Source: Candidatus Woesearchaeota archaeon (lineage in GTDB: Archaea > Nanobdellota > Nanobdellia > SCGC-AAA011-G17 > JACPIM01). From it: DNA of 64,000 bases. Positions within the stretch are counted from its first letter, which is position 1. Each line of letters opens with the position of its first letter. Shown here in pieces: positions 1 through 57,445 of the stretch. The stretch is from positions 17,198 to 81,197 of the forward strand of contig JACPIM010000002.1 in assembly GCA_016188045.1 (NCBI GenBank), read 5' to 3'. The notes beneath the pieces are model-generated. The model saw only the letters and a list, made by a program, of their open reading frames with translations. It searched no databases and had not been told where the DNA came from. The translations under genes were made by a program, and so were the position numbers.

Positions 1-206
1 ATTACCTCATCAAACAACCCAATTTCACCAACCATAACATTTTTGTTGCTCGCAATATTTACTACAGCTATGGCTTCTTTGCTACTATAAGAAATCCTTA
101 TTCTGTCCAACGCACTTAATCCACCGCTTTTAGCATCATTACTATTTATAACTACAATTAATGGACCACCACTAGAAAGACCAAGATTTTTTACTTTAAG
201 CCTCAT
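1..206 (-). CDS. AMP phosphorylase (thymidine phosphorylase family), N-terminal fragment running off the window edge
   Basis: Minus-strand translation from ATG at 206-204 gives MRLKVKNLGLSSGGPLIVVINSNDAKSGGLSALDRIRISYSSKEAIAVVNIASNKNVMVGEIGLFDEV. The pattern (VINxxDAK ... GEIGLxxEV) matches the N-terminal domain of archaeal AMP phosphorylases. The R15P isomerase and form III RuBisCO in the same window fit this call. Confidence 0.5.
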   Translation of the reverse strand, partial: MRLKVKNLGLSSGGPLIVVINSNDAKSGGLSALDRIRISYSSKEAIAVVNIASNKNVMVGEIGLFDEV

Positions 207-1215
207 ATTCTTCACTTGTGTATATATCAAAAAATACAGTTAGTATAGATAAGATTAACGGACCAATAAATATACCCATAAGTCCAAATACCTTTAATCC
301 ACCAAAAACTCCTATCAAAGCCAAAGCAGGATGTATTTTTGCTTTACTACCTATTAATTTTGGCCTGATTATATTATCTATTGTGCTAACAATTAAAAGC
401 CCGTAAAAAAGCAACCCCAAACCATTAGTTATATCACCAGAGGCAATTTTAATCAATGAAATTGGGAACCAAATAAAAGCCGCTCCTACTAAAGGTATCA
501 TAGACAAAATTATCATCGCAAAACCCCATAAAAAAGGAGAGTCTACTTTGAATATTAGTAATCCAATAGTGCCTATAATCCCCTGTATTATTCCAGTCAA
601 AACCACCCCATATAAGGTAGCATAAATACTATCTTTAAATTTCTTAGCGATGTCTTCTTTATACCTCCTTTTTAAAGGCAAGGCTTCTTTTATGGCATTA
701 GTTAGTTTTTCTCCGTCAACTAAGAAATAAAACATTAAGAAAAATATGATAAATAAAGAAAGTAATTTGTTTGGTATGTCAATTATAAAGTCATGTGCTC
801 CTTGAATAAGAACAACAGAGATCTTATTCAAACCGTCTTTGATGAAAGAACTAACATCTAGATTATTGCCGAAATAAGAATTTATGTAATCTAATCTTAA
901 TCCTTCAAAATTTATATCCCTTACATTGTAAAAAAAGTTTGTAGTCTCATTCAGTAAGCTTGTTCCAAAAAAGACAAAAGGCAACAGCATTAATAATATA
1001 ACAATCAAAGAAGTAATCAAAGAACCAAGAATACGATTTTTCAAATATTTTAATATAAATTTATAAACAGGATAAACTACGAAAGATAAAACAGCAGCAC
1101 CGATAATAGAATCAAAAAAAGGCCAAATCAAGATAATCGCCGCAATTATAATTAATATGAAGCTACCAACAAAGAAATAATTCGAATGTTTTTTTAAATC
1201 CAAACCATCTTCCAT
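196..1215 (-). CDS. AI-2E family transporter (PerM/UPF0118-like polytopic membrane protein)
   Basis: 339 aa with 7-8 predicted TM helices. The N-terminal hydrophobic core and C-terminal GxxxG-rich helices are typical of the AI-2E/PerM family. Confidence 0.55.
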   Translation of the reverse strand: MEDGLDLKKHSNYFFVGSFILIIIAAIILIWPFFDSIIGAAVLSFVVYPVYKFILKYLKNRILGSLITSLIVILLMLLPFVFFGTSLLNETTNFFYNVRDINFEGLRLDYINSYFGNNLDVSSFIKDGLNKISVVLIQGAHDFIIDIPNKLLSLFIIFFLMFYFLVDGEKLTNAIKEALPLKRRYKEDIAKKFKDSIYATLYGVVLTGIIQGIIGTIGLLIFKVDSPFLWGFAMIILSMIPLVGAAFIWFPISLIKIASGDITNGLGLLFYGLLIVSTIDNIIRPKLIGSKAKIHPALALIGVFGGLKVFGLMGIFIGPLILSILTVFFDIYTSEEYEA

Positions 1216-1650: not shown

Positions 1651-2741
1651 AATTTGCTTTAATAAGTTTGGGTGGTAAAAGTAGTCTAAGAGTAGTTGAA
1701 GAAGCAAAAAATTTTTTTGAAGTAGCAGATCACTTGGATTTAAGCGAGATAGAAGTGCGAGCAGATTCAAAAGAATCAAAAGTTATATATAAAGACAAAC
1801 CAATAGGTCCCTATGATTGTATCTATGTTAGGGGTTCTTTTAGATATGCTTTATTACAGCAATCAATAACGCGGGCGTTGCATAACGAGGTTTATATGCC
1901 CCTAAAACCAAATTCATTTACCTTAGGCCATAATAAATTTTTAACCTTATTAGAGTTGCAAAAAAATAAAGTCCCACTACCAACAACATATTTTGTAAAC
2001 AATGTTAACACCGCTAAAAAAATTCTAGAAAAGGTTAATTTTCCAATAATCATGAAAATACCTTCAGGTACACAAGGCAAGGGAGTCATGTTCGCAGATT
2101 CAATGGGTTCTGCAAGATCAATGTTAGATGCTTTGGATGTATTTAACCAACCATATATAATACAAGAATTTATTGACACGGATTCCACAGATATTAGGGC
2201 CATTGTTTTAGGAAAAAAAGTTGTAGCCTCTATGAAAAGAAAGGGAACTAGGGGAGAACTAAGAGCTAACATACATGCTGGCGGAGAAGGAATGAACTTT
2301 GAATTAGGCTACGATATAGAACAGACCGCAATAAAAGCAGCAGAAGCAGTCGGAGCAGAGATAGCAGGAGTAGATATATTAGAGTATGGCAATAAACCAC
2401 TAGTTATAGAAGTAAATCTCTCTCCAGCACTAGAAGGTGGAATAAGTAAAGCTACTAAAAAAAATGTAGCTTATGAAACTGCAAAATTTCTTTTTGAAAA
2501 GACAAAAGAATTCAAAGAAAAAAACAGCAAAAGTCACGCAGAAAGCTTGTTAAGAGAGATTGGATCAACTAATTCAGATAAAAAAGAGTTTCTTACTAAT
2601 CTCAATATAAAAGCGGGCATAATCAAATTGCCAGATATTATAACAGAGATAAGCAAATTACACCCAGATGATGAGGTTTTAATAGAATCAAAAGAAGGAG
2701 AAATAAAAATAAAAAAACAGGAAATTAAAAAAAGCGATTAG
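1647..2741 (+). CDS. RimK-family ATP-grasp ligase (alpha-L-glutamate/LysX-like ligase) with a C-terminal extension
   Basis: ATP-grasp motifs are present (IMKIPSGTQGKGV, IIQEFID, RAIVLG, GVDILEYGNKPLVIEVNLSP). It is translationally coupled to the upstream aspartic protease. Confidence 0.75.
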   Translation: MKFALISLGGKSSLRVVEEAKNFFEVADHLDLSEIEVRADSKESKVIYKDKPIGPYDCIYVRGSFRYALLQQSITRALHNEVYMPLKPNSFTLGHNKFLTLLELQKNKVPLPTTYFVNNVNTAKKILEKVNFPIIMKIPSGTQGKGVMFADSMGSARSMLDALDVFNQPYIIQEFIDTDSTDIRAIVLGKKVVASMKRKGTRGELRANIHAGGEGMNFELGYDIEQTAIKAAEAVGAEIAGVDILEYGNKPLVIEVNLSPALEGGISKATKKNVAYETAKFLFEKTKEFKEKNSKSHAESLLREIGSTNSDKKEFLTNLNIKAGIIKLPDIITEISKLHPDDEVLIESKEGEIKIKKQEIKKSD

Positions 2742-3208
2742 CGATGTAAATCATAAGTTACTTTATCTTTGTTTATAATAGTAAAATATGCCCTCACTTC
2801 TTGTCCAGTTCCAACATCAAAGCCGCTTATATAATATCGCCCACTTTGTATATTTTTGTCTTTTATAATATCAGCTGGTATCTTAAGATAAGGTGTTCCT
2901 TTTTGCGCGTAGCATCTTTTTTGATCGCAGACTTTAAGTCTAACACTATTAACTCGCCCACCTAATTCCCGGTATACCTCTAAATACATTGGAGTAGTAG
3001 GTTTTATAGCAGAATTAGCAATACCCTTACTACCAGGCATTACTGTAACTTTTATTGTACCACCTTCGGTTACACTGTTTTTATCTAAAATAATCTGTGT
3101 TTTAGTATCTGATACCGCACCACCAGTAATACCTTCTCCTAAATTAAAACTAATTAAACTAATAATTAATATTAGAACAGCAAGTAATATCACCTTTTTT
3201 TCATTCAT
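2738..3208 (-). CDS. small membrane-anchored secreted protein, paralog 1 of a tandem family
   Basis: 156 aa. N-terminal basic segment then a hydrophobic helix (MNEKKVILLAVLILIISLISF), a VTVMPGSKG motif and a conserved Cys pair (VCDQKRCY). It shares architecture with the four genes downstream. Confidence 0.5.
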   Translation of the reverse strand: MNEKKVILLAVLILIISLISFNLGEGITGGAVSDTKTQIILDKNSVTEGGTIKVTVMPGSKGIANSAIKPTTPMYLEVYRELGGRVNSVRLKVCDQKRCYAQKGTPYLKIPADIIKDKNIQSGRYYISGFDVGTGQEVRAYFTIINKDKVTYDLHR

Positions 3209-3603
3209 TCACTATCACCTCTCTTTATTGTAAAATCTTCCATTATAAAACCTTTTCGGTTATAGTCATATACCTTAACGTGATAAACTCCCGGTTTCCA
3301 GTTATTTGGTACCCAGTAACTTATAGTGGTTTCTTCAGAGCATTTGTAATCCCCATCGCAAAGTTCAATTGAAGCCTTTCTCAAATCATCTTCCGCGTTA
3401 TAAAAATTAAGATTATTATTTACCCCACCTAAACCAGGATAGACCATTATTAAAATCATACTCCCAGACTTTACAACTTTAGGGCTTATTCTCATCCCAG
3501 AAAACTCTTTTACACTAAGGCCGGTTATGTCTAAGTTAAAAGAAAAAATAGCTATAAGTATTAGGATTATAGCTCCCAATATTATCTTTGACTCTCTTTC
3601 CAT
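3205..3603 (-). CDS. small membrane-anchored secreted protein, paralog 2
   Basis: 132 aa. N-terminal signal-anchor, an IMVYPGLGG motif and a Cys pair (LCDGDYKC). Overlaps its neighbour by 4 nt. Confidence 0.5.
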   Translation of the reverse strand: MERESKIILGAIILILIAIFSFNLDITGLSVKEFSGMRISPKVVKSGSMILIMVYPGLGGVNNNLNFYNAEDDLRKASIELCDGDYKCSEETTISYWVPNNWKPGVYHVKVYDYNRKGFIMEDFTIKRGDSE

Positions 3604-3623
3604 TTATCAAATAAAATAAAAAA

Positions 3624-4058
3624 TTAACCAACATGATTTATGGTAAATATGTTGGAATCAACTTTAAAATTATATGATGGGTTTGACCTTTCTACTCTTA
3701 TAATGTAATCACCAGATTGGACCCTAGCTGGGATCAAAAACTGTTTACTAACTACCCCGTTACATATGCTCTGAGTACCGCATAATGTATCAGAAATACT
3801 TACTCTCTCCTTTAATCCGCTATTAACAGAAAATAGTTCCAATTGGCTATCAACACCAACAGATCCAGTATCAACAGTTACAGTAACGAATTTTGCACTT
3901 TCATCTCCGCTAAAAGTAACTATCGAAGGAGAAACAACAACACTAACATCACTACCATCACCAACAACCCTACCGCTTATTTTATTGAAATTAAAAGCAA
4001 CCAAAGCCAATAAAATTATTAATACTGCAACCAAAAGCGTCTTATTATTCTGCTCCAT
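3624..4058 (-). CDS. small membrane-anchored secreted protein, paralog 3
   Basis: 144 aa. N-terminal signal-anchor and a Cys pair (LCGTQSIC). Beta-rich Ig-like composition. Confidence 0.45.
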   Translation of the reverse strand: MEQNNKTLLVAVLIILLALVAFNFNKISGRVVGDGSDVSVVVSPSIVTFSGDESAKFVTVTVDTGSVGVDSQLELFSVNSGLKERVSISDTLCGTQSICNGVVSKQFLIPARVQSGDYIIRVERSNPSYNFKVDSNIFTINHVG

Positions 4059-4072
4059 ATAATTAACCTCCC

Positions 4073-4528
4073 TTAAATTATATTAAAATTTGCTGTAGCA
4101 TAAACCTTCTGTCTTGTACCACCTAAAGATCTCTCTTCCACATTTTCTTCAACCTTTACTGTATAGGTTGCATCAGAAGGCCAAGTATCATCATTAGTCC
4201 CTACCAAATATTTAACCGTTGATGTGCCATAACAAACTGAAGTTTTTGTAGCTTCCTCTGTACATACTTTTTTATTAGTGCCCTGTATTCTTACGCCATT
4301 TCTCTCTATCGACATCCACTCATTTTTCACACCACCTGGTCCAGGATAAACAGTTACTTCTATAATGCCGTTCCTGTTTACAGGATTAGGCTCAATATCA
4401 ATTACAGTTCCACCGTCTTTTACCTGATATCCAGATAAAGTAGAATTGGTAAAATTACTAGCGATCATAGCCACCAATAATATTCCGACAGCAACAAATA
4501 TGGTTTTTCTTTCATTCATTTTTATCAC
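4073..4528 (-). CDS. small membrane-anchored secreted protein, paralog 4
   Basis: 151 aa. Signal-anchor, a VTVYPGPGG motif and a Cys pair (VCTEEATKTSVCYG). Confidence 0.5.
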   Translation of the reverse strand: MIKMNERKTIFVAVGILLVAMIASNFTNSTLSGYQVKDGGTVIDIEPNPVNRNGIIEVTVYPGPGGVKNEWMSIERNGVRIQGTNKKVCTEEATKTSVCYGTSTVKYLVGTNDDTWPSDATYTVKVEENVEERSLGGTRQKVYATANFNII

Positions 4529-4953
4529 CTTATCCTAAAAGGAGCTTCAATCGTAAAGTCTCCTGTGCATACATCTTTTAATTTAATAACATAATCTTGA
4601 TTACTTTCCCAAACATCACTTTGAGAATATGTTTGTATTTTAGAACTGCCGCTTTTGCATTTATACTCGCCACCACAGATATTCCTCATAGTTACACTTA
4701 TTTTTGAATCAACTGCTTTGCCATTTCTATCCAAGTTTCTTTTGTAAACTCTGGCCTCTTCATAAAAACCTTTACCGCTACCAACATTTACTGTAACCGA
4801 ATCACCAAGGTTTATCTCATTAGGAATAGCAGTAGCAATACTTTCTTTGCAATTAACAATATTACCTGTTAAATTTAGAAAACTAGAGGACAACATTGCA
4901 ACTCCAAGAACTAGAACAGCACTTAATAATATCTTATTCTCTTGTTGCATCAA
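4525..4953 (-). CDS. small membrane-anchored secreted protein, paralog 5
   Basis: 142 aa. Signal-anchor, a VTVNVGSGKG motif and a Cys pair (ICGGEYKC). Overlaps its neighbour by 4 nt. Confidence 0.5.
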   Translation of the reverse strand: MMQQENKILLSAVLVLGVAMLSSSFLNLTGNIVNCKESIATAIPNEINLGDSVTVNVGSGKGFYEEARVYKRNLDRNGKAVDSKISVTMRNICGGEYKCKSGSSKIQTYSQSDVWESNQDYVIKLKDVCTGDFTIEAPFRIR

Positions 4954-6250: not shown

Positions 6251-8170
6251 TTAAATCAACCTATCCAAGTTTAGCTTTGCTTTATTAATATTTTCATTCT
6301 CAATGAATATTCTATACCATAGCTCAAAATTAAGTATATTCCACATCTGTCTGGCGTAATACAGCTTAGATTTATCCCTAACTTTCAACATCTTTTTAAA
6401 ATATTCTTTTTTAGCTAACTTTTTCCTCACTAAAATAGAATTATCTAAAACCCGATTAGTTAGTTCTTTCAAATCTTTGTTTATCCATTCATCTATAGGA
6501 ACAAAGAATCTTTCTTTTTTAGCACTATAAATCTGCTTAGGTAGTTTATCTTTCATAGTTCTTCTTAACAAATATTTATCTTTTAATCCATTTAATTTTA
6601 AATTGCTCTTAACTTTGGACATTAATTCTACAATTCTATGATCCAAAAAAGGAACCCTTGCTTCAATAGCATGTGCCATAGTCATTTTGTCAACTTTCAT
6701 CAACAAATTATCGCATAAAGAAGCGTTTATCTCACAATCCAAGTTTTTATTCAGTAAACTATTCTTTTTACTAAAATAAAAGTTAAAGTCATTTACTAGG
6801 TCATTATAATACTTACTTAACTTTTCATCTCCAAATTCTTCTAGATCCTTCTTATCAAATACTGTTATTAAGCTCAAATAAGTCAAAGTTTCATTATTCA
6901 AATTTTCCAAGAATACTTTAAATCTCTCAATGCCCTTTTCACCTAAACTCTCGCTATATCTGAAGAGTTTATTTAATAACTGTTTCGGCAGATTATTAAC
7001 TAGATTAGGAACATTTTTTCTTAGTGGCAAAGGAATTATTTTTCCGTATTTCCCCAATTTCATTATTTTATATTGCTCATATCCACCAAAAACTTCATCG
7101 GCTCCCTCCCCTACTAAACAAACAGTTGCTTTTTTCTTTGTTTTTTCAGATAAAACATAAGTTGGAATGGCTGCGGGATCTGCCAAAGGCTCGTCAAAAT
7201 GCCAAATTATTTTAGGCAATAATTCTATTGAGTTTGGTTCAATAATAATTTCATTATGATCGGTATTAAAATAATCAGAAACCAATCTCGCATTTTCTAA
7301 ATCTCTCTCTTTACCAAAACCAACGGAAAAAGTCTTTATAGATTCGTTTTTTAATTTGCTGGCAACTTGGACAATAGTACTGGAATCTATTCCGCCAGAT
7401 AAAAACACACCAATAGGAACATCACTTGTTAACTCGCCCCTAACACCATCAGTTAATAGATTATATAGTTCTTTGCTTAATTTATTTAAATTGCCATTTT
7501 CTTCACTAAAATTAATTTCCCAATATTTATTGATTTCAATTTTTTTACTTTCATATTTTATATAACATCCAGGCTGAAGTTTATTTATATTTTTAATAAT
7601 AGTTCTAGGTCCAGGTATAAATCTTAAAGATAAATAATAACTTAGAGATTGTAAATTAATTTCTTTTTTTATTTCTTCATTTAGTAATAAAGATTTAATT
7701 TCAGAAGCAAAAAACAAAATTCCCTCTTCAAAATAATAATATAATGGTTTAATCCCTAGCCTATCTCTAACAATTAATCCTTTTTTGTTTTTAATGTCCC
7801 ATATACAGAAAGAAAACATCCCAATTAATTTGTTTAAAAACTTTTCACCATGCTCTTCATATAAATGAACCAAAACTTCCGAGTCTGAATTTGAGTAAAA
7901 TTTATGTCCTGCTTTTTCTAATTCTCCTCTTAATTCAATATAATTATATATTTCTCCATTACAAATAACTAAAATAGTTCCATCTTCATTAAATAAAGGT
8001 TGTTTTCCCTTCTTGCTTAGATCAATAATACTTAATCTTCTATGTCCAATACTAACATTTTTATCAATAAAGTAATCATAATCATCAGGTCCCCTATGAG
8101 AAAGTATACTAGTCATTTTTCTAATCAATTCTTTATCTTCTTTTCCTAATATTCCAGTAATTCCGCACAA
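6251..8170 (-). CDS. asnB: asparagine synthetase (glutamine-hydrolysing)
   Basis: N-terminal MCGITG class II amidotransferase Cys2 and an SGGIDSS PP-loop. 639 aa. Start abuts the stop of the upstream GT2. Confidence 0.85.
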   Translation of the reverse strand: MCGITGILGKEDKELIRKMTSILSHRGPDDYDYFIDKNVSIGHRRLSIIDLSKKGKQPLFNEDGTILVICNGEIYNYIELRGELEKAGHKFYSNSDSEVLVHLYEEHGEKFLNKLIGMFSFCIWDIKNKKGLIVRDRLGIKPLYYYFEEGILFFASEIKSLLLNEEIKKEINLQSLSYYLSLRFIPGPRTIIKNINKLQPGCYIKYESKKIEINKYWEINFSEENGNLNKLSKELYNLLTDGVRGELTSDVPIGVFLSGGIDSSTIVQVASKLKNESIKTFSVGFGKERDLENARLVSDYFNTDHNEIIIEPNSIELLPKIIWHFDEPLADPAAIPTYVLSEKTKKKATVCLVGEGADEVFGGYEQYKIMKLGKYGKIIPLPLRKNVPNLVNNLPKQLLNKLFRYSESLGEKGIERFKVFLENLNNETLTYLSLITVFDKKDLEEFGDEKLSKYYNDLVNDFNFYFSKKNSLLNKNLDCEINASLCDNLLMKVDKMTMAHAIEARVPFLDHRIVELMSKVKSNLKLNGLKDKYLLRRTMKDKLPKQIYSAKKERFFVPIDEWINKDLKELTNRVLDNSILVRKKLAKKEYFKKMLKVRDKSKLYYARQMWNILNFELWYRIFIENENINKAKLNLDRLI

Positions 8171-10404: not shown

Positions 10405-10701
10405 ATGAATAGAACTAATTATATTGGTAATCTTGTTAGTAAGGTAGCATTAGGGGCTACATTATTATTTAGTGCGCCAAATGTTGGTGCTAATGGGGGC
10501 ATTGCTTTAGATCAAGGATCATCGACTATTAGTAGGGAAGAAATTTATTCCAAATTGCATGGTATAGAAAATAGACTACAAAGAATAGAAGAACAACAAA
10601 ATAGCATTGAAAATAGGCTTACTGGCCAAAGTATTAGTATCGGACTTGCATTTTCTGCTATTGGGTATTTGATCTTTAGATCATTTAAAAAAACTAAATA
10701 G
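10405..10701 (+). CDS. small secreted coiled-coil protein with C-terminal membrane anchor
   Basis: 98 aa with an N-terminal signal-like hydrophobic stretch, a heptad-like segment (LQRIEEQQNSIENRL) and a C-terminal TM plus KKTK. Confidence 0.35.
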   Translation: MNRTNYIGNLVSKVALGATLLFSAPNVGANGGIALDQGSSTISREEIYSKLHGIENRLQRIEEQQNSIENRLTGQSISIGLAFSAIGYLIFRSFKKTK

Positions 10702-11989
10702 GTTTTTCAAAACCCCACTTATCTAAAGCTCTTCTTAATTCTTTATGTGTTTTAGCATATTTATCTAAACTTATCCCTTGTTTATATGCTTCAATTGATT
10801 GAATAACCGCTCTAGCTCCAGCTTCAATTCCATCAGGATGACCTTGCGTTCCTCCTCCAACTTGTAGTACAATATCCGTAGTACCATATATATCAAAAAC
10901 CAAAGGCAAAATTCCAGGATGCAGTCCGCCAGAGGAAACAGACAAAACCGGCTTAATTCTTCCCCATTTTTGCCTTAATCTTAAATTTTCAATTTCATTA
11001 ACTTCATTTTTCATCAACATTTCCTTCATAGCAATAATCTCTTTTTCATTTCCTTCTAATTTTCCAATAACCGTTCCTGTATGTATTTGATCTACTCCAA
11101 TTAACCTTAATAGTTTAGATAAAAATAGCATACTCATCCCATGTTTTGGATTTTTTGTAAACATGGCCTGCATTGCCCGGTGTCCATGAATAGCCATTTT
11201 ATAATCATGAGCAAGCTCACAAGCAGTTCCGACAGCAGTAAAACCAGAAACAACAACATCCAACATGAAATACTTAAAATCATGATTATGAATTATCTTT
11301 ATCCTTCTCTCAAGTTCTTTTAAGTTTGGAGAAGTTACATTAATAAAAGCATCTTTCACATTACCAGTTTCTTTTTCAGCTTTATCTCTAAACTTTGAAA
11401 GAAGTTTAACTCTCTCTTCAAATCTATTAAATTTTTGATTTGTTAAATTCTCATCATCTTTAACACAGTCTATCCCGCCTTTCCAAACGGCATAAGCTAC
11501 TTTTTCTGCATGTTCTCTAGCAGTATATCCTAGTTTTGGTTTAGGAACAACAGAAGTAATGGGTCCATTTTTTCTTTTGAATATTTTTTTAATAGCCTCT
11601 CTTCCATAAACAGCACCTTTAAAATATTTAATATAATCTAAAGGCAATTCAGCATCTACTAATCTTAAATTCTTAACAGCTTTCATCCCAAAAATATTTC
11701 CACCAATTCCCGACATTAATCCAGGAACAGATCCATCTTCAACTATGATCCTAGGATAAGCAACTTTCACATATTCTTTATCACAATTAAAAGCATAAGC
11801 CTTCACTTTATTTAACAACTTAGGTTTTTGTTTTAGTGTAGTCCATGTTCCAGAAGAACTTTCAGATGCAACCCTTGCAATTGCTTCTTTCATAGAAATT
11901 CCTTTAGCAGGTTCAACTCTAAACAAACAAACTATATCATTTTTCTTAGGTTTATATTTAAAGTTAACAAAATCAAGATATTGGCTCAT
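10694..11989 (-). CDS. rbcL: ribulose-1,5-bisphosphate carboxylase/oxygenase, form III large subunit
   Basis: Near-collinear match to archaeal form III RbcL: GTWTT, GNIFGMK, VPKPKLGY, GGIDCVKDDENLT (carbamylated Lys), AIHGHRAM, SSGGLHPG, VGGGTQGHPDG. Confidence 0.93.
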   Translation of the reverse strand: MSQYLDFVNFKYKPKKNDIVCLFRVEPAKGISMKEAIARVASESSSGTWTTLKQKPKLLNKVKAYAFNCDKEYVKVAYPRIIVEDGSVPGLMSGIGGNIFGMKAVKNLRLVDAELPLDYIKYFKGAVYGREAIKKIFKRKNGPITSVVPKPKLGYTAREHAEKVAYAVWKGGIDCVKDDENLTNQKFNRFEERVKLLSKFRDKAEKETGNVKDAFINVTSPNLKELERRIKIIHNHDFKYFMLDVVVSGFTAVGTACELAHDYKMAIHGHRAMQAMFTKNPKHGMSMLFLSKLLRLIGVDQIHTGTVIGKLEGNEKEIIAMKEMLMKNEVNEIENLRLRQKWGRIKPVLSVSSGGLHPGILPLVFDIYGTTDIVLQVGGGTQGHPDGIEAGARAVIQSIEAYKQGISLDKYAKTHKELRRALDKWGFEKPI

Positions 11990-12733
11990 TTAATCCCCTT
12001 TAAAAAATATTTTTTTAAAAAAGTTGATTATTCTTCTCATAAAAGACTCTCGCTCTTTTAAAAAATTATCAACATCTTTTTCAATACCAGTTTTATTATC
12101 AACTTTGTTATTATTTTCATTTACTTTATCAACAGTAACATTAGAAACACATCCGTCTATTTTAGTATTAAAACAATCAAAATTTTTACACTCATCTTTA
12201 GTGCATTCATTTCCATCATCACAATCTTCATTTTTCTCACAAATCTTTCCACCAATATGTTTGCATTCTTTTGGAGATCCTGTACAAATATCTACTGTAC
12301 TAGAATCATTATCACTACATTCAATATCACTATTACATTTATTAATTGGTTTTTCTCTGCATCTATTATCATTGCATTCTAATCCGTTTTTACAACCGCA
12401 ATCATTGCAACAATTATCAGATGTTTCAGTTTCATCACAATTCCCATCCCCACAACTGTAAAGTGATTCAGCACTTATATCGGCTTGACTAAGAACATCA
12501 GAAAAAAATATTTCTCCAACAGTAATCTTAATGCCGTTTATATTCTTAGTCTCTTTTTCTTTTATAATACCAGAAACATCATCAACACTAACTACTACAG
12601 AATCTTCAGATACTCCTTTAAGTGTTATTTTTTTCCCACTAACTTCAATAGTGCTTCCTTTTTCTAACTGATCCGCTAAGGTAACATTAACTAAAATCAT
12701 CAATGCAAAAAGCAAGATTACTAATTTTTTCAT
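11990..12733 (-). CDS. secreted cysteine-rich protein (Asp/Asn/Cys-rich repeats), unknown function
   Basis: A cleavable-looking signal peptide (MKKLVILLFALMILVNVTLA), then a ~110-aa segment with about 24 Cys in D/N-rich repeats (CGDGNCDE, CNDNRC, CDDGNECTKDEC). Its ATG overlaps the stop of the HAD gene and its stop abuts the rbcL start. Confidence 0.5.
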   Translation of the reverse strand: MKKLVILLFALMILVNVTLADQLEKGSTIEVSGKKITLKGVSEDSVVVSVDDVSGIIKEKETKNINGIKITVGEIFFSDVLSQADISAESLYSCGDGNCDETETSDNCCNDCGCKNGLECNDNRCREKPINKCNSDIECSDNDSSTVDICTGSPKECKHIGGKICEKNEDCDDGNECTKDECKNFDCFNTKIDGCVSNVTVDKVNENNNKVDNKTGIEKDVDNFLKERESFMRRIINFFKKIFFKGD

Positions 12734-13365
12734 AATATTCTCTTTAATTCATTTAAATTTTTAACAATATAATCAGGTTTATATCTTTTTAATTCTTTTT
12801 CTTTGTAATATCCCGTAGTCACAGCTATTATCTTTACTTTTGCTTTTTTTCCTGCCGTAATATCATAAATAGAGTCGCCAACAACAAAATCAGGTTTTTT
12901 CTTAAAAAACTTCCCAACTTTCAAGATTTCATCAGGATAAGGCTTGGATCTTTTAACATCATTGTTCCCAATTAATAAATCAAAATATCTCTTACTAATG
13001 CCCGCTCCATTTAAAAGAACATATATATTGTTTCTGGAACAGTTAGAAGTAATAGCAATCTTATACTTTTTTTTCTTTAAATATTTTAAAATCTCTAAAG
13101 AAGATTTAAGTTTTTTAGCATATTTAAAATAACCGCCAGCCAAATATCTATCATGTAATTTTTTTATTTCATCTTTAACTTTTTTGCTTGATTTGGGAGC
13201 TAATAGTTTAATAAGTTCCTCTTTTGGTCTACCCAATTTACCGAACATATATTTTTCAGTTTTACTTTCTAACCCAAAAGAGTTTAATGCTCTGTTATAT
13301 GCTTTAGTATGTGCTTTTACAGAATCAACTAAAGTATTATCAAGATCAAAACAAACTATTTTCAT
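12730..13365 (-). CDS. HAD-superfamily hydrolase subfamily IA (phosphoglycolate-phosphatase-like)
   Basis: Motif I FDLDNTLVDS (DxDxT), motif II ITSN and motif IV VGDSIYDITAG. Translationally coupled between the R15P isomerase and the Cys-rich protein / rbcL. Confidence 0.7.
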   Translation of the reverse strand: MKIVCFDLDNTLVDSVKAHTKAYNRALNSFGLESKTEKYMFGKLGRPKEELIKLLAPKSSKKVKDEIKKLHDRYLAGGYFKYAKKLKSSLEILKYLKKKKYKIAITSNCSRNNIYVLLNGAGISKRYFDLLIGNNDVKRSKPYPDEILKVGKFFKKKPDFVVGDSIYDITAGKKAKVKIIAVTTGYYKEKELKRYKPDYIVKNLNELKRIL

Positions 13366-14201
13366 TTATATTCCTCTTTCGCTTTATTCATTAATTGTTT
13401 TGGAGTTAAAATCCCTAATTCAGTAATAATTGCTTTTACATGTTTCGGTTCAATAATATCAAATGCTAGATTCCTAACTTTTATTTTTTTAGGTATTTTT
13501 TCCCAAATTTCCTTTAAGTCTCTTTCTTCAATTTTTAATTTTTTAGGACTATATTTCCAGCTATTGCCTAGAATATAGACCGGAATTTTATTATCATAAG
13601 CAATCTCGGCAAACATGCTGCTCCCAACTTTATTTACAATTCCAGTAATCTTCCATTTGTTATTGGTTATTATTGCATCCATTCCAAGAAAAACACAATC
13701 TGATTTCTTGATAAAAGATTTAGCCGCAGAATCAACAAACGTAGTAACTTTTATTCCCGCTCTTGAAAGTTCTTCAGCAGTCTTTCTTCCTTGATATCTT
13801 GGCCTGGTTTCACTAACAAAAACCTCAAATTTTTTACTATGGTTTTTAGCATATTTCAAAGTATCCACCACAGTAGAAGAATGACAATGAGTAAAAACTT
13901 TTTTTCCAACTTTTTTATGTGCTAGTTTTATTATTTTTTTCTTGCTTTCTTTAATGTAATCTAAAGTTTTTTTAATCCCATTTTTCTCAGCAAATTTTAT
14001 TGCGTTATACAGCATCGGTTCTGTTGGTCTTAAGTTTAATAATTCTTTAACAGAAATATCTTTTAAAGAAAGAGCTTTAACACCATAAATAGCGATGCTT
14101 TCCGCTCCTTGTATTTCTAAACTTTTTATTTTTCTATAAACCTCTTTTGCTCCCATGTGATTTACTAAGTTTTCATCTTTATATAAATCTTTTTTATTCA
14201 A
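13362..14201 (-). CDS. ribose-1,5-bisphosphate isomerase (eIF-2B alpha/beta/delta-like, e2b2 family)
   Basis: Strong collinear similarity to archaeal R15P isomerase: THCHSS, VSETRPRYQGRKTAEEL, FVDSAA, AFDIIEPKHVKAIITELG. Sits in an operon with rbcL. Confidence 0.82.
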   Translation of the reverse strand: MNKKDLYKDENLVNHMGAKEVYRKIKSLEIQGAESIAIYGVKALSLKDISVKELLNLRPTEPMLYNAIKFAEKNGIKKTLDYIKESKKKIIKLAHKKVGKKVFTHCHSSTVVDTLKYAKNHSKKFEVFVSETRPRYQGRKTAEELSRAGIKVTTFVDSAAKSFIKKSDCVFLGMDAIITNNKWKITGIVNKVGSSMFAEIAYDNKIPVYILGNSWKYSPKKLKIEERDLKEIWEKIPKKIKVRNLAFDIIEPKHVKAIITELGILTPKQLMNKAKEEYK

Positions 14202-14275
14202 ATTAAGGAAGTGATAGGAACCTTAGGTTCTTATCAACGAAAACTATATAAACAAAAATATAATTAAATTAATTA

Positions 14276-15157
14276 ATGGTCTTAGAATCTTTATTGGGCC
14301 CAAAAAGAGCTGAGAGAAATCCAACAAGTCTTTTTTTGTTAGGTGTATTATATGCCTCAATAGCTTTATTTTTAGGATTATGGATTTTTAAAAATCAGGC
14401 AAGCCTAGTTTTAGTTTTCTTAACTGTTATGGCTGCAATTCCTTTGGTGTTTAGAACGAATATATTAGAAGAAAAAAGAGCAATGTATCTTAAAGGAGAA
14501 ATAAAACTATTAAGAGCACATTCAAGAGCATTACTTGCTTTTATTTTTTTATTCTTCGGATTTGTGATAGCGTTTTCAGCTTGGTATTTATTATTACCTG
14601 AACATCTGGTTCAATCAACATTTAATTCTCAGATAGAAACAATAAGAAGCATTAATGGAAATTTATTCGGAGCACCCATAGTAGCAAATTCTGCAATAGA
14701 CACAAATTTTGCGCAAAGCGGAGTTTTCCTGCAGATTTTTTCAAATAACATTAAAGTTCTGCTTTTTTGCATTTTTTTCTCATTCTTCTACGGAGCAGGC
14801 GCAATTTTTATTTTAACTTGGAATGCTTCTGTTATAGGGACTGCAATAGGCAATTACATTAGAACAAATCTTGCAACGATAGCAGTTGAAAGCGGATTTT
14901 CAAAAATAGGCAGTTATCTAAGCATTTATTCTTTAGGTCTATTTAGGTATGCAATTCATGGTATTCCAGAAATCTTAGCTTATTTCACAGCAGGCCTAGC
15001 TGGAGGAATAATTTCAGTCGCAATAATAAAGCATGATTTAGATTCAAAATACTTTAGAAAAATAATGCTTGATTCTTTGGACTTAATAATACTAGCGGTA
15101 CTTCTATTGTTTGCAGCAGCTTTATTAGAGGTATATATAACTCCTTTAATTTTCTAA
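14276..15157 (+). CDS. integral membrane protein (possibly SpoIIM/DUF95-like)
   Basis: 293 aa with about 6 TM helices. Family assignment is tentative. Confidence 0.4.
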   Translation: MVLESLLGPKRAERNPTSLFLLGVLYASIALFLGLWIFKNQASLVLVFLTVMAAIPLVFRTNILEEKRAMYLKGEIKLLRAHSRALLAFIFLFFGFVIAFSAWYLLLPEHLVQSTFNSQIETIRSINGNLFGAPIVANSAIDTNFAQSGVFLQIFSNNIKVLLFCIFFSFFYGAGAIFILTWNASVIGTAIGNYIRTNLATIAVESGFSKIGSYLSIYSLGLFRYAIHGIPEILAYFTAGLAGGIISVAIIKHDLDSKYFRKIMLDSLDLIILAVLLLFAAALLEVYITPLIF

Positions 15158-22129: not shown

Positions 22130-22358
22130 TGGCGAAGCCACCGAAAATTTTTTAGTAAATTTTATTAACAAGTAGTCTTATTATTTTTTCTGTCTTAGTG
22201 AAGCATAAATCTTATAATTCCAATTTGGAAAGGTTTTTGTTTTACTAGGGCTGCATGTCAATTTACTAGTGCATGGACGATTGAGTCTAAATGCCATGAA
22301 ATTCAGAAATTCCTTACGAGGGATTTTGGTGATTAATCGGTAAATTGGCTACACAATT

Positions 22359-44045: not shown

Positions 44046-44240
44046 CCCTGAATAGTAAAATGATGTTTCCAACAATAAAAACACCAGCTAAGATAAGCCA
44101 GGTAAGATTATCTGTGACCACAGTTATAAACATAAACAAGATTGCTAAAATACTAAGTCCTGTTTTTATAATATCATTAGCTATTGTCATTTTTTAATCA
44201 CCATATAACTTTAAATATTAAAGATTTGCCTTATTTAAAG

Positions 44241-46955
44241 ATGATGGGGACAACATCTAAGGAAAAGGCTAAAGAAGAACTTAAAAAACTTATTGAAGAC
44301 TTTAAGATTAATTATCAAGACTACAAGAAGTTAGCAGAAGCAGATATAGAAACAAAGCTAGTTGAAGAATTATTTATTAAAGTATTAGGGTGGACTAAAA
44401 ATGACTTTTTTAAACAAACAAAGACAAGAAGAGAAAGTAAAGGTGGAAGAGCTGATTACGAGTTTAGAATTAATGATAGAATAGTCTTTTTTTTAGAAGT
44501 TAAAAAAGTAGATGTTAATTTAGATAAAGAGGCTAATAAACAAGTAATATCTTATGCTCTTTCAAGAAGAATCCCTTTTGCGATTTCTACCAATTTTAGA
44601 CAATTAAATATTTTCTGTGTTGAACAAGAAAACGCAGTTAATAATGTATTTAGAACTTTTAAAAGTCCAGATGATTACCTCAACAGTTTTGAGGATTTGA
44701 TGTTTCTATCTAAAAAATATTTTGAAAATGGTTTAACCCTAAAAAAAGCAGAAGATGAAAGAAGATTAAAAAAGAGGATAACTATTGACAAAACCTTACT
44801 GAATGATTTTATGCATATAAGAAGCTTGATAGCTAATGATATAGAAAAAAATTATTATGGAACATATGGTATTAATGATAAAGACGAGATAGTACAAAGA
44901 ATTTTAGATAGATTAATTTTTATTAGAAAATGTGAAGATACGGGGATTAATCCAGAAAATATCGTCTTAAGAGAAGTACAATCATTACCACATAACAAAG
45001 CATATCCCAAATTAAAGGAAATTTTTAAGAAATATAATGATATTTACAATAGTGGGCTTTTCGCTATTACGAGAGATAATGATTGTGATACTATAGACGT
45101 TAATGGATTAATAATAAAAGAATTAATTGATTATTTATACGAATCCAAAGATAAACAATATGTCTATAATTTTGATTGGATTGATGCCGATATTTTAGGA
45201 CAAGTTTATGAGCAGTATTTAGGAAAGATATTGGCTCAAACAAAATCAGGTAAGGCTAAACTTAAGGATGGACAATATCATAGAAAAGAACAAGGAATAT
45301 ATTATACTCCAACTTATGTGGTAGATTATATTGTTAAGAGTACGTTAGGGGAATTATTAAAGGATAAAAAAATTGAAGTTAAGAAGTTAAAAATATTAGA
45401 CCCCGCCTCTGGTTCTGGGAGTTTCTTGATTAAAGCATTTGATTACCTAAATGAAGATATATCCAAAACAGATGAATCTAAACAAAGAAAATTCGATAGT
45501 CAGGGGCTTTATTCTATTAAAACAGAAATTTTAAAGAATAACTTATATGGTGTAGATTTGGATAACAAAGCTGTGGAAATAACTAAATTAAACTTACTCC
45601 TTAAGGCTTCTGAAAAGGATAGAAAATTACCTGAAGAACTTGATAGACATATAAAACATGGAAACAGTCTAGTTGATGATGAAAATATTGATAAAAATGC
45701 ATTTAATTGGGAGGATGATTTTAAAGAAGGTAGTTTTGATGTAGTTATAGGTAATCCGCCTTATGTTTTTACAAGAGATGTTGAATTTCAGGATTTATTC
45801 AAAAATTATGTAGCAAAACATTACTTAAATGCTTCAGAATCAATTTCAAAAAGCCATGCGAGACAATCAGGGAAAGTTAATCTATATGCTTTATTTTTAA
45901 TTAAAGGAATTAGGTTGCTTAAAAATCACGGCTTATTTGGATTTATTATACCAAATAATATCTTGAGAACTACTACTTATGACATAATAAGAAAATTTAT
46001 CTTAGATAATTGTAAAATTCTAAAAATCGTTGATTTGGGAGTGGGTGTTTTTGAAGGCGTTACTGCTTCAACTATAATCTTAATCCTAGAAAAAGAGAAT
46101 GAAAAAACAAAAAGGGACAAAAATAAAGCTAGTATTTATTCAGATGTTAACAATTCATCAGATAAAAAGGAAGTTGAACAAAAAGAATTTTTAGGTAATA
46201 CTAGCTATGCCTTTAATATAACTTTGGGAAAAGAAGATAGAACCCTTTTTGATAAAATAGAAAAAAACACGATTCCTTTAGGTGGAATAACCACTATCCA
46301 TGCAGGAGGGATAGCGACAGGAAAAAATAAAAAAGAGATGATAGAAAACTATCCTAAAAATTCTAAATATAAAAAGATGTTAGAAGGCAAAGACATAAAC
46401 CCCTACTATCCTCAATTCTCAAATAGGTATATTTTATATGAAAAGAAACTGTTGTATAGGGCAAGAGAAGAATCTATATTCCTAAACCCAGAGAAATTGG
46501 TTACGCAAAGAATAGGCGGGGGGAATAAGGTTTTGGTTGTAAGCTATGATAACCAACAATTCTATACTTTCAATTCTACAAACACCATTCTTCCTAAGGA
46601 CAAAAATTATCCTTTGAAATATCTTGTTGCAGTATTAAACTCAAAGTTAATAAATTGGTATTATGTAAATAAATTTACTAATAAATCTGAATTAACAGTT
46701 AATATATCAAAAACATTCTTAGAACAACTTCCCATAAAAGATACTTCTGAATCCCGAAAACGAGTAATTATAGAAATGGTAGATAAAATTATAAGTTATA
46801 ACAAAGACTTGGCAAGATTGGGTGATAAAACTACATCTGAAACTAAAGAACTGAATGATAAGATAGAAAAGTTAGATAAAGAAATTAATAAAACTGTTTA
46901 TGATTTATATGGGATTACTGAAAAAGAAAAGGAAATAATTGAAAAACTGGAATAG
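44241..46955 (+). CDS. Type IIG/IIL restriction-modification enzyme (MmeI-like: N-terminal endonuclease + N6-adenine methyltransferase + TRD in one chain)
   Basis: About 905 aa. LDPASGSGSFLI (motif I), VVIGNPPYVFTRD (NPPY motif IV, N6-A MTase) and an N-terminal PD-(D/E)xK-like ADYEF..FLEVKK. Size and order match MmeI. Start taken at ATG 44241 rather than the table TTG at 44184. Confidence 0.75.
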   Translation: MMGTTSKEKAKEELKKLIEDFKINYQDYKKLAEADIETKLVEELFIKVLGWTKNDFFKQTKTRRESKGGRADYEFRINDRIVFFLEVKKVDVNLDKEANKQVISYALSRRIPFAISTNFRQLNIFCVEQENAVNNVFRTFKSPDDYLNSFEDLMFLSKKYFENGLTLKKAEDERRLKKRITIDKTLLNDFMHIRSLIANDIEKNYYGTYGINDKDEIVQRILDRLIFIRKCEDTGINPENIVLREVQSLPHNKAYPKLKEIFKKYNDIYNSGLFAITRDNDCDTIDVNGLIIKELIDYLYESKDKQYVYNFDWIDADILGQVYEQYLGKILAQTKSGKAKLKDGQYHRKEQGIYYTPTYVVDYIVKSTLGELLKDKKIEVKKLKILDPASGSGSFLIKAFDYLNEDISKTDESKQRKFDSQGLYSIKTEILKNNLYGVDLDNKAVEITKLNLLLKASEKDRKLPEELDRHIKHGNSLVDDENIDKNAFNWEDDFKEGSFDVVIGNPPYVFTRDVEFQDLFKNYVAKHYLNASESISKSHARQSGKVNLYALFLIKGIRLLKNHGLFGFIIPNNILRTTTYDIIRKFILDNCKILKIVDLGVGVFEGVTASTIILILEKENEKTKRDKNKASIYSDVNNSSDKKEVEQKEFLGNTSYAFNITLGKEDRTLFDKIEKNTIPLGGITTIHAGGIATGKNKKEMIENYPKNSKYKKMLEGKDINPYYPQFSNRYILYEKKLLYRAREESIFLNPEKLVTQRIGGGNKVLVVSYDNQQFYTFNSTNTILPKDKNYPLKYLVAVLNSKLINWYYVNKFTNKSELTVNISKTFLEQLPIKDTSESRKRVIIEMVDKIISYNKDLARLGDKTTSETKELNDKIEKLDKEINKTVYDLYGITEKEKEIIEKLE

Positions 46956-48982: not shown

Positions 48983-50185
48983 ATGTCGCAAAACAAAATG
49001 AACAACCTAGAAAATAACAAGGTCTTAAACCTTAAAAAACTATCGCAGGATAGAACAGAAAGGGCTTATGCTATTCTAAGAAATGGCAACCCAGAAATAG
49101 TAAATGAACAGGAATTTTTAGTTCCAGCTTCTAATCCAAAATATAAATATAAAGTTACTCATGTAGATAGCTGGACTTGTGAATGCCCAGATTTTCAAGA
49201 AAGATGTAAAAATAATGGAATGTATTGTAAACATATTAAAGCAATACAGTTTTTCTTAAAACTACAGAATAAAGTAGAAGTTGATGAATTAAATTTTAAC
49301 ATTGAAGAAAGACAAAGTAGAAAGTGTCCTAATTGTAAAAGCAGTAAAATAGTAAGAAATGCCAAAAGAAAAACCAAATCTGGAATTAAACAAAGATATT
49401 TATGCAAAAATTGTAAGAAAAGATTTGTTTTAGAGCCAATTAGATATATTCAAGTTAATGCTAAAATATTATGCTTGATTATGAATGAGTATTTTAAAGG
49501 ACATTCTTTAAGGGATATACAAGACACTTTAGACCAATTCTTTCAAGTTAAATTATCGCCCGAAACTGTTAGAAGGTATATCAGTAAGTTTACTAAGCTA
49601 ATGGATAGCTATGTAAAAACAAAGGCTAATCCTGAAACTTTGAAATTAGGCGGAACTTGGCAATGTGATGAGCAGACAATTAAAGTAGGAAAAGAACTAT
49701 TATGGGATTGGAATGCGATTGATACTGAAACTAAGTATCTTTTAGCTAACAATATAACTAAGTCAAGGTATTATGAAGATATGGTTAAGATAGCAAGTAA
49801 ATCCAAAGAAGAAGGCGGTAGACCTGATGAATTTAGAACTGATGGATTACAAGGCTATAATAATGCAGTAAAAGAAGCTTTTGAATTAGATAAATTACAA
49901 TTTCCCTATACTGTCCATATTAAATCTAAAGGCTTTAGGAATGAAATTAATACTAATTTAATTGAGAGATACCACTCTGAATTTAGGGAGTTTGATAAAA
50001 TAAGAAGAGGGTTTGGTAATATGGATACAGCACAAGGTTGGAATGATGGCTATAGATTATTTCATAATGTAATTAGAAAGAATATGGCTTTGAATGGCTT
50101 AACTCCTCTAGAGATGGCTAAGGTTGATTTAGAACTCGGTAGGAATAGATGGTATGGGCTATTATTGAAAAGTTTAAATTGCTAA
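48983..50185 (+). mobile_element. IS6-family DDE transposase with N-terminal SWIM-type zinc finger and zinc ribbon (IS boundaries not resolved)
   Basis: The catalytic core aligns with IS26-type Tnp: WQCDEQTIKV (D), WNAIDTETK (D), FRTDGLQGYNNA, NLIERYHSEFRE (E). N-terminal CECPDF..CKHIKA and CPNCKS..CKNCKK zinc fingers occur in archaeal IS6 members. Confidence 0.8.
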
Positions 50186-55773: not shown

Positions 55774-55774
55774 T

Positions 55775-56428: not shown

Positions 56429-56484
56429 TATATTTAACTCTAACTTTGATATCTTTGCGGCATAGTTTCTTTAATAACTTCTAT

Positions 56485-57444: not shown

Positions 57445-57445
57445 T

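Follow-up and report, generated by a model that had tools for sequence, protein, structure and literature searches.

The RuBisCOs of DPANN archaea and Candidate Phyla Radiation (CPR) bacteria are thought to salvage the ribose of nucleotides through a pathway that is usually drawn with three enzymes. This AMP pathway, or nucleoside monophosphate (NMP) shunt, comprising AMP phosphorylase, ribose-1,5-bisphosphate (R15P) isomerase and type III RuBisCO, has been reported for both groups (PMC6389311, PMC5113843), and the clustering of its genes as well as fusions of the isomerase gene (e2b2) to RuBisCO have already been described in them (PMC6389311). Here we analyze a 64 kb stretch of a Candidatus Woesearchaeota genome (contig JACPIM010000002.1; hereafter the window), in which a phosphatase of the HAD-IA class is encoded between an R15P isomerase-like protein and a form III RuBisCO.

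HAD phosphatases are known from several related settings. In the haloarchaeal pentose bisphosphate pathway the gene for a HAD ribulose-1,5-bisphosphate (RuBP) phosphatase (Halxa_2271/VNG_1202C) lies directly downstream of that for R15P isomerase within one operon, and the pathway further includes a FucA aldolase; this phosphatase is strictly specific for RuBP and takes the place of RuBisCO in species that lack the latter (PMC9700705). In Thermococcus kodakarensis, which has the same salvage pathway as the DPANN forms, 2-phosphoglycolate (2-PG) is removed by TK1734 under micro-oxic conditions, and the preferred substrate of TK2301 is RuBP; TK1734 resembles the plant phosphoglycolate phosphatase PGLP and is encoded beside a rubrerythrin, TK2301 resembles Ta0175, and all aerobic RuBisCO-bearing archaea have a phosphoglycolate phosphatase (PGPase) (PMC11032457). 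CbbY, which is encoded in bacterial cbb operons, removes xylulose-1,5-bisphosphate (XuBP) (PMC10212915). What is known already therefore includes the salvage function of DPANN RuBisCO, the clustering of the genes, the e2b2-RuBisCO fusions and the placement of a HAD gene beside RuBisCO or R15P isomerase in bacteria and haloarchaea. In those parts of the RuBisCO gene-context literature reached by a limited keyword check, we found no description of a HAD-IA protein as a conserved, often fused partner of the R15P isomerase upstream of RuBisCO in Woesearchaeota.

The window, which is about 30% GC and 93% coding, carries four linked open reading frames (ORFs) on its minus strand between 10694 and 14201, namely e2b2 (13362-14201), a HAD-IA phosphatase (12730-13365), a signal-peptide Cys-rich protein (11990-12733) and rbcL (10694-11989). 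The e2b2/HAD and HAD/Cys-rich junctions are 4-nt overlaps, and the rbcL start at 11989 abuts the Cys-rich stop at 11990. Inspection of the ORFs bears out a first-pass annotation of this DNA in its coordinates, strand, overlaps and abutment, and the Pfam and NCBIfam scores for RuBisCO, HAD_2 and IF-2B uphold its gene identities. That annotation had also described an AMP-salvage operon interrupted by the HAD gene, a picture that the comparison with relatives overturns: to judge from the gene orders, no other gene of the locus is as constant as that for the HAD, around which e2b2 and rbcL come and go. On balance, we favor the reading that this is a woesearchaeal AMP (NMP-shunt/pentose bisphosphate) RuBisCO cluster, in which the HAD protein acts as a lineage-wide accessory clean-up phosphatase and the Cys-rich protein is a passenger.

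The evidence tying the HAD to the pathway comes from gene order and from domain fusions. From the RuBisCO side, we surveyed loci of 51 GTDB species with a hidden Markov model of this HAD group, within 6 kb of rbcL. Orthologues scoring 265-290 bits were recovered in L012, L013, L022, L060 and L061, always together with e2b2, and the pacearchaeote L046 has a weaker match in convergent orientation. The Nitrososphaera and Micrarchaeaceae loci contain e2b2, rbcL and the AMP phosphorylase gene without this HAD, and the same three genes occur together without it in the non-woesearchaeal archaea L032-L035, L056 and L057, indicating that the woesearchaeal order is a specific feature. From the HAD side, a metagenome scan recovered orthologues of 35-89% identity, which adjoin a divergent SpoIIM-like gene across the Woesearchaeota. 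The genes found around this HAD are optional and comprise e2b2 upstream, a small ORF with two transmembrane segments, and the Cys-rich gene and/or rbcL downstream. In L063, L075, L076 and L088 e2b2 lies upstream and rbcL downstream of the HAD. The RuBisCOs occupying this slot belong to at least five lineages, 33-55% identical to one another, and that of L088 is a form II-type enzyme (NF010002, 624 bits vs 489). The first-pass annotation had proposed looking for the four-gene order in related archaea; e2b2-HAD-rbcL indeed recurs, and a Cys-rich gene between HAD and rbcL is found only in the window's own clade.

In L066, L069 and L071 e2b2 and the HAD form a single ORF of about 470 aa, in which the THCHS, GAD and DxD motifs are kept. 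A database search recovered at least 24 full-length clusters (at 90% identity) of such e2b2::HAD fusions, 468-491 aa in length, combining PF01008 with PF13419 and 43-100% identical to the L066 query (P0123-P0144, P0148, P0151 and P0152, minus one listed without contig data); two shorter fragments, P0145 and P0146, have the same domain pair. A neighbor-joining tree of the HAD domains distributes the fusions over three separate clades. The fusion ORF and rbcL overlap in L143 and are no more than about 1.5 kb apart in L144 and L145. The functional tie between HAD and pathway, which had been suggested from adjacency, is thus strengthened by an order that persists with at least five RuBisCO lineages and by the e2b2::HAD fusions, and the HAD is probably a fourth part of the pathway.

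The HAD protein itself (12730-13365, minus strand; 211 aa; HAD_2, E 8.5e-32) belongs to the C1-cap type. It has motifs I-IV of the superfamily, i.e. DxD (D7, D9), S107-N108, K141 and GD...D (D164, D168); among 104 orthologues no variation is seen at D7, D9, K141, G163, D164 and D168, and conservation is 90% or higher at S107 and N108. In an AlphaFold2 (AF2) model (pLDDT 97.4), helices 16-82 form the cap, and the model matches HAD-IA structures with template modeling (TM) scores of 0.82-0.89 in Foldseek. Sequence and predicted fold place the enzyme only within HAD-IA. Its Pfam matches are restricted to HAD_2, Hydrolase and Hydrolase_like, without the TK1734-type or Ta0175-type architecture; we take these types to be HAD-IIA (Hydrolase_6) and HAD-IIB (Hydrolase_3), respectively, and hence TK1734 and TK2301 to be members of HAD subfamilies other than that of the window protein. 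CbbY was not among the PDB sequence matches at E < 1e-5, and an hhalign comparison with the CbbY sequence of 4UAR, confirmed as 230/230 identical, gave a superfamily-level relationship (probability 98.4%, E 4.8e-15, 20% identity). The orthogroup is a small one: an exhaustive search of representatives gave 30 at E < 1e-30, one of them a fusion, and no functional names.

Several observations weigh against the HAD being a dedicated part of this pathway, or at least against naming its role. The substrate is not fixed by homology, as the named models lie far below their cut-offs and the fold neighbors are mostly uncharacterized structural-genomics HAD-IA proteins, among which CbbY ranks 39th (TM 0.81); the model superposes equally well on many uncharacterized HAD-IA proteins, AlnB, the BT2127 pyrophosphatase and CbbY. 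The best PDB sequence match is the Aquifex 'PGPase' 2yy6 (E 7.6e-17) and, among named families, bacterial phosphoglycolate phosphatase and PpaX score best, each far under its cut-off. The bacterial PGPase equivalogs (TIGR01449 and PRK13222 among them) score 99.9/225, 82.3/180 and 80.4/327 bits, and the HAD domains of the fusions L066 and L143 likewise fall below; 'PGPase-like', as the protein had been called, is accordingly just the best-scoring family name. Turning to the locus, of the HAD loci whose flanks are adequate, about half have neither e2b2 nor rbcL, with the flanks unchanged, and the order SpoIIM-HAD-Dph6-like occurs without them in L065, L067, L074 and L089. In the tree, HADs with and without the linkage do not separate, and both kinds have the same conserved residues in core and cap, H19 and H71 among them. 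Conversely, the HAD is missing from L146-L148, which do have e2b2, a small membrane ORF and rbcL. The cluster thus neither requires the HAD nor follows from its presence, so that inherited synteny could account for part of the linkage, and fusions can arise trivially from neighbors overlapping at ATGA. On the side of transcription, internal TTTAAATA sites and T-runs are present within the cluster.

Carried to its end, this argument makes the HAD a housekeeping phosphatase with no relation to the pathway, sitting in an old slot beside the SpoIIM-like gene where e2b2 and rbcL were inserted or lost. The collinear loci lacking e2b2 or rbcL, the mixed tree with its shared residues and the HAD-less L146-L148 all speak for it, as does the head-to-tail packing of unrelated genes throughout this genome. 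Nevertheless, we regard it as unlikely, given that e2b2 and rbcL flank the HAD instead of adjoining each other and retain this order with at least five RuBisCO lineages, that the fusions are kept over their whole identity range and in three HAD clades, and that the HAD-less e2b2-rbcL-AMP phosphorylase clusters of non-woesearchaeal archaea make the woesearchaeal order specific. What the unlinked loci do indicate, within the favored reading of a clean-up phosphatase, is that the HAD is an accessory and not an obligate partner, because HADs without e2b2 or rbcL and clusters without the HAD both occur. The HAD probably has work in cells without RuBisCO, and its presence at loci without rbcL argues somewhat against a strictly RuBP/XuBP-specific role and somewhat for 2-PG or a broader specificity.

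The first-pass annotation had guessed at 2-PG from the oxygenase side reaction or at a pathway intermediate, and this still appears to be the right short list: contigs with the same four-gene cluster come from the Hainich groundwater well H51, which is oxic, with 2.7 mg/L O2 (PMC8672522). A conserved, often fused fourth protein points to the disposal of 2-PG, several of the hosts living in oxic water, or to control of pentose bisphosphates, meaning RuBP or inhibitory pentose bisphosphates where no RuBisCO activase is present. Tentatively, the substrate may be 2-PG formed by the oxygenase reaction; a pentose bisphosphate (RuBP, XuBP or R15P) is a candidate of the same tentative standing, and a substrate outside these two is only slightly less likely. 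A narrower and rather doubtful proposal is that the woesearchaeal HAD is a RuBP/XuBP-specific phosphatase, recruited independently of CbbY and of the haloarchaeal RuBP phosphatase and repeatedly fused to R15P isomerase. Were it correct, the enzyme would be a relief valve or proof-reader letting a slow form III RuBisCO without activase run in oxic, cold groundwater; it would also be a third independent instance of RuBisCO-substrate hygiene and the fourth dedicated enzyme of the archaeal AMP pathway.

The RuBisCO of the window (rbcL, 10694-11989, minus strand; 431 aa; form III, III-B-like, by TIGR03326 and motifs) passes the type III model TIGR03326 (530.1 bits vs a cut-off of 497.45) and matches Pfam RuBisCO with E 5e-80. 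The models for RuBisCO-like proteins (RLP) and MtnW give 118-155 bits against cut-offs of 409-514, and the OiaX model is also far below its cut-off. The closest structures are 6hun (E 5.9e-131) and the T. kodakarensis enzyme 1geh (E 3.5e-122), and the alignment to 6hun retains KPKLG, GGxDxVKDDEN, HGHRA, HTGT, GKLEG, SSGGLHPG and GGG, whose catalytic and RuBP-binding roles, together with that of the carbamylated Lys in VKDDEN, we take from established knowledge of RuBisCO. By model score and motifs the protein is predicted to be a bona fide type III carboxylase. In L063 the e2b2, HAD, Cys-rich and SpoIIM products are 83-97% identical to those of the window, yet rbcL is of another type; it has therefore been swapped in place. 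More broadly, L063 (6952-7372) and L009 (6749-7738) share with the window (10694-11989) the SpoIIM-e2b2-HAD-Cys-rich context at 64-97% amino acid identity, and their RbcL past about residue 45 is around 48-53% identical to that of the window and 64-94% to another type III group (L144, L145). A mosaic rbcL with a window-like N-terminus in L009 and L063 was rejected as unproven, because in L144 and L145 the DNA ahead of the called starts encodes this N-terminal sequence too. In L005 (6742-6782) and L063 (~6941-6981) we also observed a mini-ORF of 12-14 codons following a Shine-Dalgarno (SD) motif; its TGA overlaps the rbcL ATG and it resembles a duplicated rbcL start (ATGAGCC...).

The isomerase-like gene occupies 13362-14156 on the minus strand and encodes 264 aa from its ATG. 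The mechanical ORF extends to a TTG at 14201, which is an unlikely start because the extension contains the conserved TTTATATA box and the proteins of relatives, at 264-266 aa, match the ATG at 14156; the latter is probably the true start. The protein matches Pfam IF-2B (E 4.9e-45) and fails the cut-off of TIGR00511 (164.1 vs 314.1 bits), although this is still the best NCBIfam model, ahead of those for MtnA and aIF-2B. Its best PDB matches are the R15P isomerases 5yfj (E 1.1e-33) and 3a11 (E 1e-31), followed at lesser significance by the aIF-2B 1vb5 (E 1e-25) and the MtnA 1t9k (E 1.7e-15). The THCHS and GMD (GxD) motifs align with the THCHS Cys and the Asp mutated to Asn in 5yft, presumably Cys133 and Asp202 in the numbering of the T. 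kodakarensis R15P isomerase. This pair alone does not discriminate R15P isomerase, being common to MtnA. A tblastn search of e2b2 against plasmids gave haloarchaeal matches only in Salinigranum and Halarchaeum, annotated as eIF-2B and with no HAD or FucA neighbor.

The ambiguity of the Cys/Asp pair raises the prospect that the e2b2, RuBisCO-family and HAD proteins act on methylthioribose derivatives in the manner of MtnA, MtnW and MtnX. In the methionine salvage of Bacillus these three, MtnW being an RLP, work together, so that the same families are known to co-operate; the pair likewise fails to separate R15P isomerase from methylthioribose-1-phosphate (MTR-1-P) isomerase, and e2b2 is below the TIGR00511 cut-off. 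We find this scarcely credible here, since RbcL passes TIGR03326 with the MtnW/RLP models far below cut-off and has all the RuBP and carbamate-site motifs, and since an AMP phosphorylase that passes its equivalog shares the neighborhood. Moreover, no class II aldolase (ribulose-1-phosphate (Ru1P) aldolase or MtnB), MtnD or MtnK was found among the scanned ORFs of at least 70 aa in the 64 kb window, and no MtnX or enolase-phosphatase structure is among the PDB sequence or fold matches of the HAD. The assignment of the cluster to AMP salvage remains the one we favor.

The Cys-rich gene (11990-12733, minus strand) encodes 247 aa and has no Pfam or NCBIfam family. The protein has a signal-peptide-like segment MKKLVILLFALMILVNVTLA, a beta domain (residues 21-90), an 18-Cys module, a variable linker and a conserved amphipathic C-terminal helix. 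Its 9 homologues all come from DPANN metagenome-assembled genomes (MAGs) or metagenomes and the 18 Cys are invariant; the ORF is a real gene, as its ratio of non-synonymous to synonymous rates (dN/dS) of 0.14-0.22 is near the 0.07-0.19 of its neighbors. The AF2 model has a mean pLDDT of 68.6, with block means of 82-91 over residues 21-90, and its best Foldseek match, to the S-layer DUF1608 domain 3u2g, is weak (E 6.5e-3, TM 0.24) and to be read as a hint only. The secreted product had seemed unexpected inside a central-metabolism operon, and appears less so now: the gene is lineage-restricted, adjoins the HAD without any rbcL in L083, L084 and L091, on the opposite strand in the first two, and belongs to a genome in which unrelated genes are packed head to tail. 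The product is probably a lineage-restricted surface protein without a part in the pathway, and its gene seems to be carried along as a passenger in this highly compact genome. Alternatively, the protein could be tied to the pathway, for instance as a surface receptor or scavenger feeding nucleotides to salvage, and be co-expressed with it for this reason. The gene holds the same translationally coupled slot across lineages with saturated synonymous divergence (dS), adjoins the HAD in L083, L084 and L091, and lies in a neighborhood where a permease gene is coupled to that of AMP phosphorylase. Such a tie is nonetheless highly unlikely: there are just 9 homologues, the gene is missing from most e2b2-HAD-rbcL clusters (L022, L075, L076, L088, L143), the HAD abuts rbcL in MAG GCA_030691925.1 with the Cys-rich gene on another contig, the strand differs in L083 and L084, and Pfam detects no catalytic or nucleotide-binding domain. 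The passenger reading of this gene makes it an example of tight overlap in compact genomes being an unreliable guide to shared function.

In relatives the cluster includes a small membrane protein of another kind. This protein of 95-141 aa, with two transmembrane segments and an HE[FL]YHxxxH motif, is encoded between e2b2 and the HAD (or rbcL) in many of them (L022 4949-5350, L061 4248-4673, L146 8786-9127), is absent from the window and belongs to no Pfam family; it represents a second non-metabolic membrane protein recurring inside the cluster.

The TATA, SD and T-run motifs were read directly, the host being an archaeon for which a sigma-70 promoter/terminator scanner is not suited. The TTTATATA box (14180-14187, minus strand) lies about 24 nt upstream of the ATG at 14156 and is a probable promoter for a leaderless or short-leader transcript; the same motif and spacing are found in four close relatives (L005, L007, L009, L063), and TTTAWATA has only 46 occurrences on both strands of the 64 kb window. 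The only conserved TATA is that ahead of e2b2. Internal cistrons follow SD-like motifs, with GAGG ahead of the HAD and GGGGAT ahead of rbcL in the window, and GGTGAT or GGAGGTGAT ahead of rbcL in L007, L075, L076, L022 and L143. Directly after the rbcL stop lies a run of seven T (T7, 10687-10693, minus strand), which is archaeal terminator-like and is weak evidence because runs of 6-7 T also occur inside the four-gene cluster. Given the zero intergenic space and these TATA, SD and T7 signals, the four genes are most likely carried on one transcript, as the first-pass annotation had supposed from the overlaps. In 21 of the 44 same-strand neighbor pairs of the window (48%) the genes overlap or abut, with an overlap of exactly 4 nt in 10 pairs, and overlaps are found even between convergent genes; as 4-nt overlaps are the norm of this genome, they argue for co-transcription and not by themselves for shared function.

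All four genes are under purifying selection in pairwise comparisons of four lineages, at dS values near saturation (dN/dS 0.07-0.14 for e2b2, 0.09-0.19 for the HAD, 0.14-0.22 for the Cys-rich ORF and 0.11-0.16 for rbcL). Upstream of them the divergent SpoIIM-like membrane protein gene (14276-15157, plus strand; PF01944, E 1e-16) adjoins the HAD/e2b2 slot in most related loci and serves as their anchor of synteny. A 10-bp inverted repeat, GATAGGAACC-TTA-GGTTCTTATC, in the SpoIIM/e2b2 intergenic region (14215-14237) was dropped as an operator candidate because it is not conserved in the close relatives L063, L005, L007 and L009.

The third pathway enzyme, AMP phosphorylase, is cut by the window edge (1-206, minus strand), leaving codons 1-68, and a PDB sequence search with this 68-aa fragment gave no match. 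The whole gene, encoding 492 aa, is present in the identical Logan contig SRR12113424_5679 (L002 11010-12488), and its product passes TIGR03327 (562.3 bits vs a cut-off of 535), confirming the earlier identification. The 12-kb distance from rbcL noted by the first-pass annotation holds in the window and is not general: in L143 and L145 a distance of about 4 kb separates rbcL from the genes for the RimK-like protein, the Asp protease, the AI-2E permease and AMP phosphorylase. This neighborhood recurs in the window, where the wider separation is due to extra genes in this lineage, which widen the gap by about 8 kb and comprise a methyltransferase, an Asn synthase, a family 2 glycosyltransferase (GT2) and five small secreted paralogues. 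The latter are tandem ORFs of 132-156 aa (2738-4953, minus strand), each with an N-terminal hydrophobic segment and a few Cys, and appear to be paralogues encoding secreted or surface proteins. The AI-2E family permease gene (196-1215, minus strand; PF01594, E 3.5e-53) overlaps the AMP phosphorylase start by 11 nt at its 3' end. The overlapping pair is also found in L143 (15511-17983) and L145 (13998-16458), so that an overlap of 11-17 nt is seen in three divergent lineages, and it adjoins a pair encoding a RimK-like ATP-grasp enzyme and a retropepsin-like protease. The permease could be a transporter coupled to nucleotide salvage.

Elsewhere in the window, an island of about 30 kb devoted to cell-envelope glycosylation (14276-44000) consists mainly of genes for glycosyltransferases, PMT/STT3-like enzymes, a flippase, sugar-nucleotide enzymes, radical SAM/SPASM proteins and methyltransferases, and is followed by a type IIG restriction-modification gene (44184-46955) and an IS240-type transposase (48983-50185). 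A match to the Rfam RT-16 RNA (22193-22357, plus strand; 54.1 bits vs a gathering score of 50, E 1.7e-5) has an unknown 246-aa ORF on one side and a methyltransferase gene on the other, with no adjacent reverse transcriptase gene. A single run at 55144-58120 (minus strand) comprises a NUDIX hydrolase, a second HAD hydrolase (57446-58120, PF00702 only) and two unknown ORFs; the NUDIX protein and this second, unrelated-looking HAD are candidates for further nucleotide or sugar-phosphate enzymes.

Taken together, the favored reading would have a transcript starting from the TATA upstream of the ATG at 14156 and carrying the R15P isomerase, the HAD-IA phosphatase, the Cys-rich protein and the form III RuBisCO. 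Going by family membership, AMP phosphorylase would yield R15P, the isomerase would convert it to RuBP, and RuBisCO would turn RuBP into two molecules of 3-phosphoglycerate. The HAD would clear a phosphorylated by-product or a surplus intermediate for the isomerase-RuBisCO pair, in an activity presumably not confined to RuBisCO-bearing cells, and the Cys-rich protein, predicted to be exported, would be extracellular or on the surface. For biochemists the e2b2::HAD fusion is a ready-made testable construct, and for annotation it is a marker separating this module from the eIF-2B paralogues of the translation apparatus.

Set against the AMP pathway of T. kodakarensis, DPANN and CPR, the locus has the same three enzymes, with RbcL and AMP phosphorylase passing their equivalogs and e2b2 matching R15P isomerase best; it differs in the HAD-IA phosphatase placed between isomerase and RuBisCO, often fused to the isomerase in relatives, and in a short e2b2 (264 aa) under the TIGR00511 cut-off. 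The Bacillus MtnA/MtnW/MtnX system draws on the same superfamilies (e2b2 isomerase, RuBisCO fold and HAD phosphatase), whereas the RuBisCO-fold protein of the window is a predicted carboxylase by score and motifs, and MtnB, MtnD and MtnK were not found in the window. With the haloarchaeal non-carboxylating pathway it shares a HAD gene directly downstream of that for R15P isomerase; the haloarchaeal enzyme works with FucA and no RuBisCO, whereas the window's HAD shares a probable operon with RuBisCO, and neither the window nor the related loci yielded a class II aldolase. Like TK1734 and TK2301, the HAD would handle 2-PG or RuBP in an archaeon using type III RuBisCO for nucleoside salvage; neither of those is reported to be encoded with RuBisCO, and the window protein carries HAD_2. 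The bacterial cbbZ and cbbY products, which clear RuBisCO by-products, are likewise HAD-IA C1-cap phosphatases encoded beside RuBisCO, but the window HAD fails the PGPase cut-offs and is 20% identical to CbbY, and the woesearchaeal HAD is linked to salvage and not to the Calvin cycle, with fusions to the isomerase in relatives.

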